Below, in pieces: positions 3,884-60,810 of a stretch of 64,000 bases of DNA; position 1 is the first letter of the stretch, and each line of letters opens with the position of its first letter. The stretch is taken from assembly GCA_020632415.1 (NCBI GenBank), contig JACKFO010000002.1:322732-386731 (forward strand), in the 5' to 3' direction. A program made the position numbers and the translations under genes. Under the pieces are notes generated by a model that ran no database searches, had not been told where the DNA came from, and saw nothing but the letters and a program-made list of their open reading frames with translations. Source of the DNA: Candidatus Nomurabacteria bacterium. GTDB taxonomy: Bacteria > Patescibacteriota > Patescibacteriia > UBA1558 > GWA2-36-10.

Positions 3884-3994
3884 AAAATTTTTGATTATTT
3901 TTAAACTACTCTAATTATCCTATTTTTATTAAGAAAAGTCAAAAGGCTCGCCGATTTTTACTCTTTGAGCCTTTTTCCTAAATCATGCATGACT

Positions 3995-4234
3995 TCACTC
4001 TCCCAAGGCTTTTTTGGCCTGTTGATACTGACGAATCAACCAGAGACTGGCCAACACTCCCAAAACAAAACCGCCGCTCAGGAGCATCGCCAATTCAAGA
4101 TCTAGCACATCTTTGGTCATCGACCAAAACACACCACCCAAACAGCTGAGAGTGGCTATAACCGCCACAACGGAAAAGCCAAACCAATTGCTTTTGACCT
4201 GCTCCAGGTCTTTGAGTTCAGATGCACGTGACAT
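3995..4234 (-). CDS. orphan small membrane protein, 79 aa, two predicted TM helices (G+C-elevated cassette A)
   Basis: ATG at 4232-4234 preceded by GGAGGA with about 7-nt spacing; the track start at 4249 is a TTG extension. Local G+C is clearly above the flanks. Confidence 0.5.
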   Translation of the reverse strand: MSRASELKDLEQVKSNWFGFSVVAVIATLSCLGGVFWSMTKDVLDLELAMLLSGGFVLGVLASLWLIRQYQQAKKALGE

Positions 4235-4343
4235 CAGTCTATCCTCCAAATTGAAGAACCGTCATCTTGCTTTAAGTTTGACACAGAGCAAAAAATTTGT
4301 AAAATAAAAAATCCTCTGAGACCTCAAAGGATTTTTTGCTAAA

Positions 4344-5096
4344 TTATTTAACTTTATAATTTAAATTTACCTCAACCACTAAATCATATTCACCGCTTGG
4401 CAGATAAGCTGGCGCTGCCTCAGCAGACAACATTGCGCCGCCTTTGCCATAAACATCATTGGCCGGATAATAATTTTCCCACCAACCAATGGTCTTTCCT
4501 AAACGCACACCAGTGGCTTTAGACATTTCTTTAGCTTTCATTTTAGCATCTGTAATTGCCTTTAATCTAGCTTCTTGTTTTAAATTTTCTAAATCAGCAG
4601 CTTCAAAATTTACACTGTTTACTTGATTAGCTCCGGCCTTGGTAGCCGCAGAAATCAAATTTCCAACAATGTTCTCTTGAGCTGAAAAATTATTAACAGT
4701 TATTATAACTGACTGATTGGCACTATAGCCGGCTAATTTTGAACTTCCTTCAAAATAATCATACTGCGGATAAAGATTGTAATTTCTGGTTTGAATATCT
4801 TTTTCTTCAATACCCTGATCTTTGATCGCCTGCAAAACTTGATTCATTTTTTGATTTAAGTTTTCTAGAGCCAAATTAGCATTAGCCGCTCGATCTACTT
4901 GCACGCCTAAATCAATTTTTGCTGTGTCAGGTAAATACGAAACCTCTCCTCGTCCAGTCACTGAAACTTGATACTGCGGATCATTGATAATTCGGTCTCT
5001 TAACAAAGCAACCACCAAAACAATAGTGATCAAGACCATCATGGTGATTTTTACCCACAAACGATGTGGCTGATAAACTTTTTGTTCGTTTTCCAT
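4344..5096 (-). CDS. SIMPL (DUF541) domain protein with N-terminal membrane anchor
   Basis: VSVTGRGEVSYLPDTAKIDLGVQV and the C-terminal EYDLVVEVNLNYKV pattern are typical of the SIMPL/26-kDa periplasmic immunogenic protein family. Confidence 0.7.
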   Translation of the reverse strand: MENEQKVYQPHRLWVKITMMVLITIVLVVALLRDRIINDPQYQVSVTGRGEVSYLPDTAKIDLGVQVDRAANANLALENLNQKMNQVLQAIKDQGIEEKDIQTRNYNLYPQYDYFEGSSKLAGYSANQSVIITVNNFSAQENIVGNLISAATKAGANQVNSVNFEAADLENLKQEARLKAITDAKMKAKEMSKATGVRLGKTIGWWENYYPANDVYGKGGAMLSAEAAPAYLPSGEYDLVVEVNLNYKVK

Positions 5097-5123
5097 ATAA
5101 TTAATTTATTATTTTTTAATCAT

Positions 5124-6734
5124 TTATTTCACGCTTGCTTTAATAAACTCTCTAAACAAAGGATGCGGTCTTAAGGGTCGAGATTTAAACTCTGGATGAA
5201 ATTGACTAGCGACAAAAAATGGGTGATCTTTTAGCTCAATAATTTCTAACAATCTTTTATCTGGTGAAAGGCCAGCCAGTCTCAAGCCAGCATTTTCTAA
5301 AACCTCTCGATAATCCATATTGAATTCATAACGATGTCGATGTCTTTCGTCGATTTTATTTGAGCCATAAGCTTTGAAGCTCAATGAATTTTTATCCAAA
5401 ACGCAAGGATAAGAACCAAGTCTTAAAGTGCCGCCCTTTTCTTCTTCTTCAGTGTGACCTGGCAAAATATGAATCACCGGATTTTTAGTCTTTTGATCAA
5501 ATTCGGTAGAGTTTACTTCGCTGGTTTTCAAAACATGACGAGTAAATTCAATTGTTGCCACTTGCATTCCAAGGCATAAGCCTAAATAAGGTTTTTTATG
5601 TTCACGAGCATATCTTGCAGCCATTATTTTTCCTTCTATTCCTCGATTTCCAAAACCACCGGGTACCAAAATACCTTTGGCCTTTTTTAATTTGTCCCAT
5701 TCAGCTTGGTCTTTTTTCTCTAATTTTGCAGCATTGACCCAAAGCAAATCTAAAGTAACATTATTAAAATAACAAGCTGATTTCAAAGCCTCCACGACAC
5801 TCAAATAAGCATCTAAATTTTGGTTATACTTTCCAACCAAAGCAATGCTTAATTTTTTCTTATGATTAGCTTTGATATTATTTACTAATTTCTCCCAATC
5901 TTCTAACTTAGCTTTTTTCTTAGCTAAGTTTAATTTTTCAAAAATAATCTCTGAAATATGATGTTTTTTCTCAAAATTAATCGGCACTTCATAAATTGTT
6001 TTGACAGTTGGCGCTGGAATCACTGCTTTTTCCTCCACATCAGCAAACAAAGCTATTTTTTCAATCGATTCTCGATCAATGGCTTTGTCTGATCTAGCTA
6101 AAATAATATCTGGCTGAATACCACGACGATAAAGCTCACGCACCGAAGCTTGAGTTGGTTTAGTTTTAAGCTCTCCAGAAGCCTTTAAAAAGGGCAATAA
6201 AGTCAAATGAACGAACAAAGCGTTATCTTGGCCAACTTCCCGATGAAACTGTCTAGCTGCCTCCAAATAAGGCTCTCCTTCAATATCACCGACAGTTCCT
6301 CCAATCTCAATCAACAAAATATCCGCCTTACTCTCTTCGGCTGCTTTTTTAATGTGATTTTTAATTTCATTGGTAATATGTGGGATGATCTGAATAGTTT
6401 TTCCTAAATAATCACCACTACGCTCTCCACGTAAAACTTTTTCATAAATCCGACCAGTGGTCAGATTTGATAGCTTAGACAAATTGGTGTCAATAAATCT
6501 TTCATAGTGTCCAAGATCTAAATCTGTCTCCGCCCCATCGTCAGTGACATAAACTTCACCGTGTTGGAAAGGACTCATTGTACCTGGATCGATATTTAGA
6601 TAAGGATCAAGTTTTAAAGTAAAAACTTTATGGCCACAAGATCTCAAAATTGCTCCAATTGAAGCTGAAGCAATTCCTTTGCCAAGCCCAGAACAAACTC
6701 CTCCAGTAATAAAAATGAATTTTGTTGACTGCAT
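5124..6734 (-). CDS. pyrG: CTP synthase
   Basis: [17 protein letters not shown]-terminus, glutamine amidotransferase LGLCLGMQ and HRHRYEFN motifs, 536 aa. Confidence 0.95.
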
Positions 6735-6787
6735 GAGAAAATGAATTTAAGATTTTTCAAAACAGAGACATTATAACAAATTTTATT

Positions 6788-6820
6788 TAAAAAAACAAAA
6801 ATGCCTCAACTTGTGAGGCA
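6788..6820 (-). terminator. intrinsic terminator after rplI
   Basis: Minus strand ATGCCTCA-loop-TGAGGCAT followed by a long T-run. Confidence 0.7.
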
Positions 6821-6826
6821 TTTCTT

Positions 6827-59714: not shown

Positions 59715-59743
59715 CAAAAAACCACTCTTGCGAGTGGTTTTTA
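59715..59743. terminator. bidirectional terminator between recR and rplU
   Basis: AACCACTC-TTGC-GAGTGGTT flanked by an A-run and a T-run. Confidence 0.75.
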
Positions 59744-59756
59744 AATTGAATTTAAA

Positions 59757-60074
59757 CTAAGCGCTAATCTTTTCAATCTTAATTTCTGCTTTATGTTGAC
59801 GATGGCCAACGGTTTTCTTATAACGAGTTTTAGCTTTATACTTAACGACCGTTACTTTACGATCTTTAAAATTCTTGACCAAAGTAGCTTCTACTTTAGC
59901 GCCTTTAATAATTGGATCGCCTAAAGTAACATTATCTTTATCATCAGCGATTAACAAAACATCATCAAAAACTACTTTTTCACCATCTTGTTTGGTTGGT
60001 AATTTTTCAATGCTTAAAACATCACCTTGTTTTACTTGATATTGTTTCCCGCCGGTTTTAATTACTGCTAACAT
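59757..60074 (-). CDS. rplU: 50S ribosomal protein L21
   Basis: MLAVIKTGGKQYQVKQGDVL start at 60072-60074. The track extension of 14 codons is rejected. Confidence 0.9.
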   Translation of the reverse strand: MLAVIKTGGKQYQVKQGDVLSIEKLPTKQDGEKVVFDDVLLIADDKDNVTLGDPIIKGAKVEATLVKNFKDRKVTVVKYKAKTRYKKTVGHRQHKAEIKIEKISA

Positions 60075-60182
60075 ATTTTTTATAATTTTTCTAAAAAAGT
60101 ACTCATAGATTAGCAAAAAATCATTATATTGTCAACCTCAGGTATAAAAATATCCCAATTGCCCTGCATAAAATCAAATGGG

Positions 60183-60211
60183 TTGACAAAATATATATTA
60201 TATGATATAAT
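60183..60211 (+). promoter_or_regulatory. promoter of cassette H
   Basis: TTGACA 60183-60188, 17 nt, TGaTATAAT (-10 at 60206-60211). Confidence 0.65.
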
Positions 60212-60260
60212 ACCAAAGAATTGGACATTTTCACAACAAAAGCAGCAGTTGGAGGAAATC

Positions 60261-60737
60261 ATGAATTGGCGAAAAATTGCACTTCTGTGCCTACTTCTTG
60301 CTTTGCCGATGTGGATGCTGATCCGTTCTATGCTGCCTTCGCAGTCAGTTATGGAACAGCTCCAGGAGATCGCCGATCGAACTCCCATTCACTTCGCTTT
60401 GTTGGTCGATGGACAGAGAATCGAGTATTTCGGCTTTGCCATCGATACCAGCACAGCAGCGGATACGAGTTTCGTCGAAAATCTCTACTTCTACGATCAA
60501 GTCGTGATCTGCAACATTCCAGGAGAGAACCAGTACCTCGAAGTACTCAAGGACACCCTGGATACGATCGACCCTCTGGGCACAGTCAAAGATCACGCTC
60601 CATTGGTCGGAGGCGACTACATCATCGAAGCCTACGATGCTTGGACGGATTCCCTCAAGTTCAGAGCGCGAATTCGCGCCGAACACATTGACGGAGAACC
60701 GTACATCTTCGATGATCAGAACCTTGTCAACAACTGA
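60261..60737 (+). CDS. orphan secreted or membrane-anchored protein, 158 aa (G+C-rich cassette H)
   Basis: GGAGGA SD 6 nt from ATG 60261. N-terminal hydrophobic segment MNWRKIALLCLLLALPMWML. G/C-ending codons. Overlapping track ORFs 60221..60691(+) and 60345..60746(-) are rejected. Confidence 0.55.
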   Translation: MNWRKIALLCLLLALPMWMLIRSMLPSQSVMEQLQEIADRTPIHFALLVDGQRIEYFGFAIDTSTAADTSFVENLYFYDQVVICNIPGENQYLEVLKDTLDTIDPLGTVKDHAPLVGGDYIIEAYDAWTDSLKFRARIRAEHIDGEPYIFDDQNLVNN

Positions 60738-60758
60738 CGCCCCCAATCCCCCCGGATC

Positions 60759-60810
60759 GATCCCGGCACAACACAGCAGCAGCTGTCGCGTGTCGGGATC
60801 ATTTTTATTT
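60759..60810 (+). terminator. terminator of cassette H abutting the sufU stop codon
   Basis: GATCCCGGCAC-20 nt-GTGTCGGGATC (one G-U pair) followed by ATTTTTATTT. Confidence 0.6.

Follow-up and report, generated by a model that had tools for sequence, protein, structure and literature searches.

G+C-rich transcription units in apparently inherited intergenic slots of an AT-rich Parcubacteria lineage

Introduction

RNA genes often account for G+C-rich islands in AT-rich genomes. For bacteria, GC-biased conversion has been put forward (PMC4450053). The lineage studied here is a single AT-rich member of the Parcubacteria with a tiny genome (NCBI "Candidatus Nomurabacteria bacterium", locus tags H6761_), and the sample comprised one 64-kb stretch of its DNA (the window) together with short contigs from relatives. 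The G+C-rich islands of the window encode mostly signal-peptide or membrane proteins or micro-peptides. In this report, we propose that they are clade-specific, vertically inherited slots for envelope proteins and micro-peptides, with quickly diverging or changing cargo, in which a force acting only within each transcription unit maintains the high G+C, a reading whose chances we put at about even.

Architecture of the units

An earlier note on this DNA described eight G+C-rich segments (A to H), each a complete expression cassette between conserved genes. All eight segments are real, and their flanks are those that it named: DUF5671, SIMPL, CAP, a giant gene, DUF5663, SdpI, AsnRS/tRNA-Asn, cadherin-like proteins, SDR, a P-type ATPase, ArgRS, tRNA-Lys, DnaB, L21 and NifU/SufU. 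Large surface-protein genes adjoin several units. The count needs amending, because B holds two divergent units and G two tandem ones, giving 10 units with 11 ORFs, either monocistronic or paired divergently or in tandem. A Shine-Dalgarno (SD) site and a terminator are present in 10/10 units, and a sigma-70-type promoter in 9/10, unit A being the exception to the claimed near-consensus promoter. The SD sites are of the GGAGG type and the terminators are strong hairpins; most units have a leader that is comparatively AT-rich and an intrinsic terminator that is G+C-rich. The promoters of B1, B2, C, D, F, G1, G2 and H match TTGACA-N16-18-TATAAT at 10-12 of 12 positions; across the parts of the window that were scanned, four promoters match perfectly (12/12), and three of these drive cargo genes.

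Unit A (3938..4260, minus strand) has the SD GGAGG and an ORF (3995-4234) for 79 aa with two hydrophobic helices (GC3 0.54, z = 7.5). Its hairpin (~3942-3974) overlaps the next gene's promoter. A consensus promoter was sought on its own (minus) strand and none was found; the TTGACA...TAAAAT at 4278-4305 lies on the plus strand. Unit B1 (23476..24649, minus) encodes a beta-rich protein of 327 aa with a signal peptide (23530-24513; GC3 0.54), with a promoter at 24621-24649 (TTGACA-17-TATGGT), a leader of ~100 nt and a terminator at 23476-23508. Divergent from it, unit B2 (24680..25575, plus) has a 12/12 promoter (24680-24708), an ORF for 248 aa with a signal peptide (24754-25500; GC3 0.81, z = 15) and a terminator at ~25529-25575. 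The ORF of unit C (31275..32815, minus) encodes 449 aa with N-terminal transmembrane helices (31339-32688; GC3 0.52), between a 12/12 promoter (32787-32815) with a 92-nt leader and a terminator (~31275-31319). This protein probably carries an SPFH/Band 7 domain, its Band_7 matches lying near or below the cut-off.

Unit D (45009..45529, minus) is the weakest member. Its soluble 128-aa product (45053-45439; GC3 0.37, z = 3) returned no family in a family search; the promoter (11/12) is at 45501-45529 and the terminator at 45009-45028. Unit E (49747..50499, plus) carries a micro-ORF, E1 (49894-49962, 22 aa, GC3 0.52), and E2 (49980-50429, 149 aa, GC3 0.65), a polytopic membrane protein with internal 45-nt repeats, downstream of a promoter at 49747-49775 (TTGACA-17-TATAAA) and a 109-nt leader. 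Two terminators meet the stop codons of neighbours, as had been observed: the T-tract of the bidirectional E terminator (50464-50489) overlaps that of SDR, and the H terminator abuts that of sufU. Unit F (53923..54625, plus; promoter 53923-53951, terminator 54589-54617) encodes an acidic, soluble protein of 180 aa (54016-54558; GC3 0.79) with a conserved Cys and a C-DWQIV motif. Unit H (60183..60808, plus) has a 12/12 promoter (60183-60211), a leader, an ORF for 158 aa with an N-terminal signal/anchor (60261-60737; GC3 0.60) and a terminator at 60759-60808.

The two G units, both on the plus strand, encode micro-peptides that share a KSTEIV motif. G1 (56730..56968) has a promoter at 56730-56757, the SD AAGGAGG, a 28-aa micro-ORF (56812-56898) and a terminator at 56936-56958; G2 (56976..57280) has a promoter at 56976-57004, a 92-nt leader, a 32-aa micro-ORF (57103-57201) and a terminator at 57248-57270. 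The small units, especially G1, G2 and E1, might be structured non-coding RNA genes with incidental ORFs. Their size (200-300 nt) and strong promoter and terminator would suit such genes, the G2 transcript has a modest folding advantage over shuffled controls (z = -2.55), and the G-slot unit of the relative L003 has, on reading, no convincing SD-led ORF. We nevertheless regard this explanation as very improbable. G1 is 3-periodic (GC3 0.83, GC1 0.59, GC2 0.45), as are the window and L002 micro-ORFs generally (GC3 0.83-1.00 vs ~0.4-0.6 for GC1/GC2; G2 1.00, 0.39 and 0.36 at positions 3, 1 and 2). SD motifs are correctly spaced, there is no Rfam family match, and the fold z-scores of G1 (-1.6) and F are weak. 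Nor could it apply to B1, B2 and C, where purifying selection acts on protein. As the earlier note held, most cargos are signal-peptide proteins (B1, B2, H), membrane proteins (A, C, E2) or micro-peptides (E1, G1, G2); D and F are small soluble proteins.

Composition and integrity of the islands

The whole-sequence profile of the window gives a backbone G+C of 0.345, vs 0.445 (A), 0.531 (B), 0.469 (C), 0.383 (D), 0.478 (E), 0.529 (F), 0.512 (G) and 0.482 (H) for the segments. The reported preference for G/C-ending codons is borne out: cargo GC3 (0.37-1.00) exceeds the backbone maximum in 11/11 ORFs, the backbone value being 0.261 +/- 0.037 with a maximum of 0.338 (47 ORFs, each of at least 100 codons). 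The cargo thus falls outside the backbone distribution, at z-scores from 3 to 20, with D, previously ranked lowest, marginal. The surplus is chiefly at codon position 3. Deep GC codons (CTC/CTG, CGC, AAG, ATC) mark B2, E2, F and G, and the cargo keeps the backbone's pyrimidine-ending preference, moved from T to C, with CCC above CCG, CTC equal to CTG and GGA kept.

The boundaries of the units are sharp. The adjacent 60 codons of flanking genes show no GC3 spill-over (0.274 vs 0.272, p = 0.98, 16 gene ends). GC climbs along the unit from promoter (its AT-richness judged by eye) through leader to 3' UTR; the 5' UTRs, which had been called G+C-rich, have a pooled GC of only 0.40, vs 0.55 in the 3' UTRs and 0.25 in backbone intergenic DNA. 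High expression alone cannot be the cause, since strongly expressed genes of the backbone, those for ribosomal proteins among them, lack this GC-richness. Orientation is another correlate: units on the plus strand are C3-richer, and among the 10 cargo ORFs compared, all 6 on the plus strand (GC3 0.60-1.00) exceed all 4 on the minus strand (0.37-0.54; exact p = 0.0095).

A compositional contrast of this kind could arise if G+C-rich pieces of other organisms had been misjoined into an AT-rich genome, but nothing beyond the contrast itself favors that account. Three other samples yielded contigs that match the window at 100% identity, island junctions included. Islands B and C (14.4 kb) are spanned at 100% identity by Logan and ENA assemblies made independently from other runs, and such assemblies likewise cover H, the H-sufU junction and part of the second G terminator repeat copy. 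The promoters and terminators of the units interlock with neighboring genes, and relatives from unrelated studies repeat the pattern at the same loci. Chimeric assembly or contamination is ruled out for practical purposes.

Inheritance of the slots

Sequence comparison indicates that the slots and their regulatory frames are vertically inherited. In L088 and L104-L107, the giant gene and CAP flank B2-B1, and in L108 they flank a B1-like gene; the B1 family is confined to Parcubacteria. GC3 of the B1 positional orthologs is 0.58 (L088), 0.60 (L104) and 0.39 (L108). The B2 ortholog in the same position shares 46% identity over 116 aligned residues in L088 (43% by BLASTP; GC3 0.68) and 25% in L104 (E = 2e-11, GC3 0.66), and the B1/B2 divergent promoter region is 91% identical to that of L088 over 43 nt. 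SdpI and DUF5663 flank C in L087 and L108, and the L087 ortholog (P0004) has 66-69% identity, identical synteny and GC3 of 0.48 vs 0.21-0.25 in its flanks. Values of dN/dS (B1 0.15, C 0.17, B2 0.35) mark these as real genes under purifying selection; the coding bodies are among the fastest-diverging in the window.

The start codon-to-terminator body, approximately, is G+C-richer than its flanks in every lineage examined, most of all at synonymous sites; in 16/16 tabulated gene-by-genome cases, the GC3 of the slot gene is 0.10-0.55 above that of the local backbone. This deviation outlasts synonymous saturation. Against L088, B1 has a 4-fold identity of 0.32 (0.28 expected at saturation) and GC4 of 0.40/0.45, and B2 is saturated at 4-fold sites with GC4 of 1.00/0.71, vs GC4 of 0.19-0.26 in the flanks. 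Such persistence argues that the composition is not the leftover of a recent import.

The earlier note had inferred a gene set that might have been taken over from a high-G+C donor or host and wired to host-type promoters. On this reading the cargo would have arrived recently by horizontal transfer, perhaps out of the episymbiont's host, and would not yet be ameliorated. The strong deviation, the deep GC codons of B2, E2, F and G, the lack of homologs outside the clade and the variable content of the F, G and H slots are all consistent with it. Set against it are the saturation just described, promoters and leaders orthologous up to the ATG, and diverged relatives that carry B1, B2 and C as positional orthologs of the same composition. 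Homologs came up only in AT-rich Parcubacteria, in a word search of 5.8 billion clusters and in an exhaustive HMMER search (B2 and F returned only themselves in the word search). No donor homolog or member of a G+C-rich pool appeared in 5.8e9 clusters, 1.84e9 representatives, or metagenome or viral scans, the last of which gave no phage or viral relatives of the cargo. GC3-outlier ORFs are missing at nearly all other Patescibacteria dnaB loci. Further, GC1, GC2 and amino acids are too AT-like for GC3 of 0.8-1.0: a regression over 80 Patescibacteria loci predicts GARP of 0.32 and GC1 of 0.66 for the most GC3-rich cargo, which has only 0.22 and 0.58. GC1 and GARP/FYMINK content thus lie well below those of a genome with such a GC3, and the amino-acid composition resembles that of an AT-rich genome. 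Integrase, attachment-site repeats and tRNA-end duplication were looked for and not found, nor were flanking repeats shared between islands, apart from the duplicated G1/G2 terminator; the earlier note had likewise seen no sign of a mobile element. We judge recent import improbable overall and largely refuted for B and C, though single young cargos (G1, G2, H) could have arrived in this way.

What stands of the earlier picture is a dispersed, lineage-restricted, independently transcribed gene set with host-style promoters. Its products are orphans outside the clade; within it, related Parcubacteria have homologs of B1, B2, C and F. For B and C, orthologs of the same deviant composition occur at the same loci (L087, L088, L104-L108), an outcome that the earlier note had itself named as refuting. 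The regularity once thought excessive for natural horizontal transfer can be explained in an ordinary way by resident orthologous promoter/leader/terminator frames and by tandem duplication.

Slots with changing cargo

Accessory behavior does hold for some slots: the bodies at H, G and F have been replaced, lost or duplicated. L002 and L003 share with the H slot an orthologous promoter, early leader and terminator, around a CDS that is not orthologous. The three genomes are ~77% identical at the nucleotide level; the promoter/leader orthology of this frame reaches right to the ATG, and its terminator stem shows compensatory changes. The rplU-side slot holds four unrelated cargos in four genomes, that of L090 encoding 266 aa next to rplU. 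The F site is empty in L090, where argS and the ATPase gene are 131 bp apart. In L003, the positional homolog of F has 41-43% identity and a homologous leader, with GC3 of 0.44 vs 0.79 and GC4 of 0.35 vs 0.78 in the window; the 4-fold sites are more saturated than in the flanks. A 39-nt direct repeat (56930-56968 / 57242-57280, 97%) makes the G2 terminator a copy of that of G1 and brackets G2; in L003, the G-slot unit is likewise bracketed, by a repeat of 68 nt. These repeats suggest that units can multiply by tandem duplication.

Such turnover raises the possibility that cargo cycles in a G+C-richer pool, in relatives or an unsampled element, and repeatedly re-enters the same slots by homologous recombination (e.g. 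after natural transformation), the arms being either the conserved promoter/leader and terminator or the housekeeping genes on each side. A further contribution may come from GC-biased gene conversion, given its proposal for bacteria, and GC level would reflect time since the last import. The four rplU-side cargos, with a frame orthologous in the three alignable genomes, the empty F site, the F contrast with L003 and boundaries sharp enough for fixed recombination arms all agree with such exchange. Four unrelated cargos at one slot imply replacement, which requires some import from an outside pool. B1, like F, is more saturated at 4-fold sites than its flanks, which allele exchange or local hypermutation fits better than selection. 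In L108, the B1-like and C-like genes have diverged far beyond their flanks (CAP is 60% identical, the B1-like gene just 25%). We still consider this explanation rather unlikely, though the strongest of the alternatives. The searches found no pool member, the amino acids of the most GC-rich cargo are unlike those of a GC-rich genome, and the orientation effect is unexpected for imports. C diverges in step with its flanks (4-fold identity 0.57 vs 0.59 for fpg), and for B2, B1 and C to stay GC-rich would need parallel re-import in several lineages.

A force within the transcription unit

Under the reading that we favor, inherited slots kept G+C-rich from within, a directional force limited to the transcription unit would hold the G+C. 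Selection on the transcript, biased conversion and allele exchange are candidates. Several observations sit awkwardly with this reading: synonymous change would be expected to become slower, not faster, if selection favored G/C at synonymous sites; slot genes are out of step with their flanks, as in L108; and F differs in GC3 between the window and L003. Strand-asymmetric mutation would modulate the GC level, as the C3-richer units of the plus strand suggest. For a new unit, an existing promoter/terminator frame would be duplicated in tandem, and the body would then diverge fast. Among the candidate forces, we favor selection at the level of the transcript or of its codons. Codons that end in G or C, rare in this genome, could give slow translation and/or nuclease-resistant, long-lived mRNAs, and such mRNAs would serve the production of envelope and host-contact proteins.

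Results

Composition and architecture of the islands

The window has a G+C content of 36.1%, which is 34.5% outside the eight flagged segments and 38-53% inside them. We re-derived the ORFs of the G+C-rich units (hereafter "cargo") from the window sequence and obtained 11 ORFs in 10 units, scattered across 57 kb. The eight islands (A-H) described in the earlier note are real, but they hold ten units rather than eight cassettes, since island B is a divergent pair (B1 on the − strand, B2 on the + strand) and island G is a tandem pair (G1 and G2). Among the A+T-rich backbone genes, GC3 (G+C at codon position 3) averages 0.261 ± 0.037 and reaches at most 0.338 (47 ORFs of at least 100 codons). 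All 11 cargo ORFs lie above that maximum, with z-scores of 3-20: A 0.54, B1 0.54, B2 0.81, C 0.52, E1 0.52, E2 0.65, F 0.79, G1 0.83, G2 1.00, H 0.60 and, as a marginal outlier, D 0.37. GC1 and GC2 of the cargo are raised by only about 0.1. Thus, the contrast between islands and backbone is real and strong at the coding level.

GC skew on the + strand is negative through the whole window (cumulative −49), that strand being C-rich throughout, and about 80% of the window's genes are on the − strand. These facts place the window inside one replichore, in which the − strand is probably the leading strand. Two features of the backbone may be recorded here. A local G+C peak of about 0.49, outside the cargo islands, stems from a tandem 45-nt repeat (1115-1204, 87% identical) in the ORF at 716-1246 (− strand). 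Further, the small genome retains a tRNA-Thr(CGT) gene (42923-42998) that reads only ACG, a codon seldom used by the backbone (7% of its Thr codons) but accounting for 35% of Thr codons in the most G+C-rich cargo.

Abrupt compositional boundaries could in principle be made by a chimeric assembly, and the earlier note had proposed examining the junctions on that account. Contigs from independent assemblies cross island junctions at 100% identity. A Logan contig from run SRR12358676 is identical to window positions 20066-34513, islands B and C included; a second from that run spans 57251-64000, its end falling within the second of the two G terminator copies; and a contig from SRR14234111 spans 60541-62267, crossing from H into sufU. 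An ENA contig also matches the window, and the same proteins appear at NCBI as the hypothetical proteins H6761_01725, _01745 and _01875 on an 842,326-bp contig. We therefore reject a chimera, the chance of which we regard as negligible.

Near-consensus promoters (TTGACA-N16-18-TATAAT, 10-12 of 12 matches) stand upstream of B1, B2, C, D, F, G1, G2 and H, and that of E is TTGACA-17-TATAAA. Nine of the ten units thus have their own promoter, in the same style as those of the backbone operons and tRNAs, and three of the four perfect (12/12) promoters in the scanned parts of the window precede cargo genes. Hairpin terminators close all ten units; the strongest in the scanned regions, confirmed by the scan, are those of G1, G2, F, E2, D and B1, and the others were read from the sequence. 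The description of each cassette as a complete host-style unit stands except for A, whose own strand carries no consensus promoter: the nearby match at 4278-4305 is on the opposite strand. The flanking genes are those first named, and terminators do overlap or abut a neighbor's stop codon in two places (E2 with the SDR gene, H with sufU). The 5′ leaders had been called G+C-rich, a claim that fails: they average only 40% G+C, compared with 55% for the 3′ UTRs and 25% for backbone intergenic DNA.

The cargo proteins

No cargo protein has a significant family match in Pfam or PHROGs, in line with the earlier statement that no family was recognizable; C has only a weak resemblance to Band_7/SPFH. 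Against PF01145, C scores E = 0.006 (17 bits, below the cut-off of 23.6). Two of three C-family members match that profile (best E = 7e-5). For the 66-69% identical ortholog of C on the related contig L087 (P0004), the precomputed Band_7/SPFH hit is marked weak. Searches of the PDB by sequence and profile with B2 and C gave no matches. Among 5.8 billion clusters, B2 and F match only themselves, and an exhaustive HMMER search found five relatives of B1, the placeable ones being AT-rich Parcubacteria.

Simple sequence features agree with the product classes assigned earlier: predicted signal peptides in B1, B2 and H; predicted membrane proteins in A, C and E2; predicted soluble, mildly acidic proteins in D and F (pI 6.0 and 4.9); and micro-peptides in E1, G1 and G2. 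An AlphaFold model of B1 (7 sequences, pLDDT 45.7) reveals only the signal peptide and about 16 long beta-strands, and an AF2 model of C (2 sequences, pLDDT 38.2) is unusable; neither is confident enough to support a fold search. NG86 estimates of dN/dS are 0.17 for C, 0.15 for B1 and 0.35 for B2, which indicates that these genes are under purifying selection. The smallest units might alternatively be genes for non-coding RNAs, but RNA folding of G1, G2 and F gives only weak z-scores. Known non-coding RNAs are rejected, as the only Rfam matches at the gathering threshold are the window's six tRNAs, none of which lies in an island, and we consider an RNA function very improbable.

Three of the cargo genes have noteworthy local features. 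C (31339-32688, − strand) is annotated at NCBI (H6761_01745) as a protein of 345 aa. An ATG preceded by a Shine-Dalgarno sequence at 32688 would give 449 aa, and P0004 (454 aa) aligns with C over its full length; on these grounds, the deposited start probably lies too far downstream. E2 contains a tandem 45-nt repeat (50170-50259, 80% identical) and further degenerate repeats, which encode recurring Ala/Gly/Val-rich transmembrane segments. At the 3′ end of D, at the stop codon and shortly before it, there is an exact 17-nt direct repeat (45048-45064 and 45103-45119, spacing 55 nt), and the encoded GGV/AGCNL ends are repeated; it may reflect a small, recent duplication or a site prone to frameshifts.

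Slots in related genomes

DnaB assigns the organism to the Patescibacteria/Parcubacteria. Its nearest counterparts are 86-87% (L002 and L003), 78% (L090) and 73% (L004) identical. In a screen of about 80 Patescibacteria loci near dnaB or a P-type ATPase gene (threshold, GC3 more than 0.2 above the local median), outlier ORFs were essentially absent, save for rRNA-like artefacts and the organism's own clade. Literature searches found no description of such a pattern in CPR/Patescibacteria.

Within the clade, some cargo is old. The earlier note had raised the possibility that relatives carry the same cassettes at the same loci, and orthologs of B1/B2 and C do occur there, also G+C-rich. In L087, about 78% identical to the window in nucleotides, the order fpg-SdpI-C-DUF5663 contains a C ortholog of GC3 0.48 between flanks of 0.21-0.25. 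L108 has a C-like gene at the corresponding place (26% identity, GC3 0.37, flanks about 0.2). The divergent B2/B1 pair lies upstream of the CAP gene in L088 (identities of 43-46% and 52-54%; GC3 0.68 and 0.58; flanks 0.26-0.27), and the promoter region shared by the pair is 91% identical to the window's over 43 nt. In a Rifle-aquifer Parcubacterium (L104, GCA_000991205.1) and on three more contigs, the giant gene is followed by a 270-aa gene, the B1 homolog and then the CAP, cadherin-like, Dus and CorA genes. The 270-aa protein of L104 is homologous to B2 (E = 2e-11, 25%), and GC3 of this pair is 0.66 and 0.60, with flanks of 0.22-0.31.

The surrounding surface-protein neighborhood, consisting of the giant gene and the CAP and cadherin-like genes, is itself conserved. 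The giant gene (25623-30722, − strand) encodes a 1699-aa acidic protein with no Pfam domain on record, and partial homologs of 1222-1840 aa occupy the same locus in the distant Parcubacteria L104 and L108. When compared with window positions 17144-25500, these two contigs diverge in a mosaic manner: L108 is 60-61% identical in CAP and the cadherin-like protein and 77% in Dus, whereas L104 is 44-54% identical in the former and 83% in Dus. This pattern suggests that the locus may have recombined between lineages.

Other slots, i.e., fixed loci holding a unit, have less constant contents. At the F site, L003 encodes a protein 41-43% identical to F, with an alignable leader and a GC3 of 0.44; the site is empty in L090, where the gap between argS and the ATPase gene is 131 bp, a vacant locus of the kind the earlier note had suggested seeking. 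At the H slot, pairwise identities among the window, L002 and L003 are 76-78%, and the promoter (GGGTTGACAAAA...), early leader and terminator are orthologous in all three, the terminator stems differing by compensatory changes. The alignments stop exactly at the coding sequence. The three proteins (158, 188 and 143 aa) each have an N-terminal hydrophobic segment, and a search for cryptic orthology among them turned up no more than one marginal pair (E = 0.012). In L090 the slot contains yet another unrelated cargo, the fourth: a 266-aa signal-peptide protein, encoded divergently from rplU and equipped with a TTGACAAAA promoter and a terminator of its own. GC3 of the cargo over these four genomes is 0.60, 0.61, 0.66 and 0.42. 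The presence of four unrelated cargos at one slot requires replacement.

At the G slot, a different pair of micro-ORF units (44 and 29 aa; GC3 0.98 and 0.97) precedes dnaB in L002, and L003 has a unit without a convincing ORF. The tRNA-Lys gene is inverted relative to dnaB in L002 (136-236), a local rearrangement at this slot, while it is co-oriented with dnaB in the window (56611-56687) and in L003. In the window, G2 is bracketed by a 39-nt direct repeat (56930-56968 and 57242-57280, 97% identical, 312 nt apart) that comprises the G1 and G2 terminators. A stretch coding for KSTEIV is common to G1 and G2; elsewhere the two units have hardly any alignable sequence. Given the repeated terminators and shared KSTEIV stretch, G1 and G2 are probably tandem duplicates. 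The G-slot unit of L003 is bracketed by a different, 68-nt repeat (9493-9560 and 9873-9940, 84% identical, 380 nt apart) that takes in sequence just upstream of the dnaB promoter, so that the unit's promoter region looks like a copy. No comparable repeats flank the other islands. These arrangements suggest that units may multiply when promoter/terminator frames duplicate in tandem and the body then changes rapidly, a process that would also explain their regular, host-style architecture.

Import, exchange or maintenance

The high-G+C donor proposed in the earlier note finds no support. The search for one was empty: B2 and F find only themselves, B1 and C find only AT-rich Parcubacteria, and scanning the F-family alignment against metagenomes gave no match. 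Further, the deviation has outlasted synonymous saturation. B1 and its L088 ortholog are 32% identical at 4-fold sites, where 28% is expected at saturation (conserved residues); divergence estimates this close to saturation are noisy, and the B2 comparison with L088 covers 116 codons. G+C at 4-fold sites in the window and L088 is nonetheless 0.40 and 0.45 for B1 and 1.00 and 0.71 for B2, compared with 0.19-0.26 in the flanking CAP and cadherin-like genes. An old, one-time import would have lost its deviation by then, and no decay toward the host composition (amelioration) is seen in orthologs at synonymous saturation. Slot genes exceed the local backbone in GC3 in 16 of 16 slot-gene-by-genome cases.

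The composition of the proteins points the same way. To calibrate GC1, GC2 and amino-acid composition against GC3, we used 80 Patescibacteria loci spanning GC3 values of 0.11-0.75. Cargo of moderate enrichment (A, B1, C and H) fits the resulting line. The most enriched (B2, F, G1 and G2; pooled GC3 0.82) departs from it: GC1 is 0.58 where 0.66 is expected, the GARP class of amino acids 0.22 rather than 0.32, and the FYMINK class 0.26 rather than 0.19. G2 is the extreme (GC3 1.00, GC1 0.41, GARP 0.12). Such AT-like values are not those expected after long life in a genome of 60-70% G+C. Cargo codons also keep the backbone's preference for pyrimidine endings, moved from T to C; CCC exceeds CCG, CTC equals CTG and GGA is retained. 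Only the young cargos (G, H and F) could still be recent imports, and we hold this to be unlikely.

Two further observations concern the limits of the deviation and its dependence on strand. GC3 of flanking genes is 0.274 in the 60 codons nearest the islands and 0.272 elsewhere (16 gene ends, p = 0.98), so the shift ends at the unit boundary. The six + strand cargo ORFs (GC3 0.60-1.00) exceed the four − strand ORFs (0.37-0.54; exact p = 0.0095), and the ordering of B2 above B1 holds in L088 and L104 too. Taken together, the saturation, composition, codon, boundary and orientation results argue for a directional force that is confined to the unit and acts in place.

Several results run counter to pure maintenance in place. 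Synonymous divergence of B1 and F exceeds that of their flanks, for which 4-fold identity is 0.46-0.51 where 0.31-0.36 is expected at saturation. The L108 flanks are nearer the window's (CAP, 60%) than those of L088 and L104 are, but its B1-like and C-like genes are far more distant. GC3 of F differs strongly between the window and L003. Along with the four cargos at the H slot, these findings make it likely that there has been some cargo exchange between lineages, or local hypermutation. A serious rival to maintenance is therefore recurrent exchange of alleles or cassettes with a G+C-richer pool, possibly aided by biased gene conversion; with the donor search and the amino-acid compositions set against it, we view it as rather improbable. 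The strain contigs L104-L107 differ by only 1-5 bases, too few for a test of substitution direction.

Discussion

From this 64-kb window and short contigs of relatives, we propose that the islands are resident, clade-specific slots whose regulatory frames would be inherited vertically, whose cargo bodies would evolve or turn over fast, and whose G+C would be held high by a force limited to the transcription unit. Selection on the transcript or its codons is our favored candidate for that force. We give the proposal as a whole about an even chance of being correct.

None of the known systems fits entirely. The phage moron, a gene between two conserved genes with its own promoter, terminator and deviant G+C, occupies insertion hot spots with different cargo in related genomes (PMC2920897). 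It is the best match for the architecture of the units (single genes between conserved genes, with their own signals and a G+C unlike their neighbors') and for the behavior of the H, G and F slots. Sporadic presence of the moron type is seen for H (four cargos in four genomes), G and F; B1, B2 and C are ancient and syntenic. Unlike morons, the units are chromosomal with housekeeping or surface genes as flanks, there are no phage genes, PHROG hits or viral relatives, the frame is resident and orthologous, and the deviant composition is long-maintained rather than a mark of recent arrival. A phage origin is unsupported, with no PHROG hits and no IMG/VR relatives of the B1 family, B2, the F family or H.

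The units resemble horizontally acquired islands as compositional outliers of lineage-restricted content, one of which adjoins a tRNA gene. They differ in having no donor homologs, no decay by amelioration and an amino-acid composition at odds with GC3. As the earlier note reported, no integrase or transposase is seen, here in the annotated parts of the window, and the ends of tRNA genes are not duplicated (the tRNA-Lys 3′ end has no second copy). Apart from the G terminator copy, no flanking direct repeats were found. Like integron cassettes, the units are small, mostly single-gene, function-unassigned modules with variable content at a fixed place; unlike them, they are dispersed rather than arrayed, and nearly every one has its own promoter and terminator. 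We found no attC-like repeat common to the units, and no integrase is seen in the annotated parts. Insertion in the manner of integrons or tRNA islands, which would leave shared repeats or a tRNA-end duplicate, is thus unsupported.

Mouse Fxy exemplifies a hot spot of GC-biased gene conversion. The islands share with such hot spots a local rise of GC3 toward very high values and fast sequence evolution. Conversion tracts should blur into neighboring genes, however, whereas the predicted spill-over of GC3 is absent here and the leaders are AT-richer; boundaries so sharp make a simple regional hot spot of recombination or conversion less likely. Biased conversion has been proposed as a force in bacteria (PMC4450053). 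Finally, the cargo resembles ORFans and lineage-specific surface genes, being short, lineage-restricted and fast-diverging, with many predicted exported proteins. ORFans are on average G+C-poorer than conserved genes, and match the backbone in AT-rich Mycoplasma (PMC4706650). The cargo exceeds its backbone in GC3 by 0.1-0.7, and the direction of deviation is therefore unusual.

A bolder reading, which we offer tentatively and think doubtful, is that the units form a dispersed regulon of envelope proteins and micro-peptides held in a separate "codon dialect" (GC3 0.6-1.0 compared with 0.26 for the genome), bounded exactly by the units and conserved across species. If true, this would imply a so far undescribed mechanism, and the units would amount to actively maintained micro-isochores in a bacterium. 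Selection acting on codons or on the make-up of the transcript could then serve as a regulatory layer, for example through translation gated by a rare tRNA or nucleotide supply at host contact, or through nuclease-proof mRNAs. Another possibility would be biased repair or conversion targeted to the transcription unit.

Deviant G+C is a standard signal for calling horizontal transfer. In these islands the signal is strong, but the comparative evidence points to long residence and active maintenance. On that reading they would be a concrete counter-example, and they would counsel caution when islands are called in reduced, AT-rich genomes. They also raise the question of whether local base composition in bacteria is set by selection on transcripts and codons, by biased conversion or by exchange within a gene pool. 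Conserved promoter/terminator slots with fast-changing cargo offer a view of how small new genes are generated and tested. The affected genes, which are predicted to encode exported proteins and micro-peptides and lie beside giant surface proteins, are of the kind likeliest to mediate the poorly understood attachment of CPR/Patescibacteria to their hosts.
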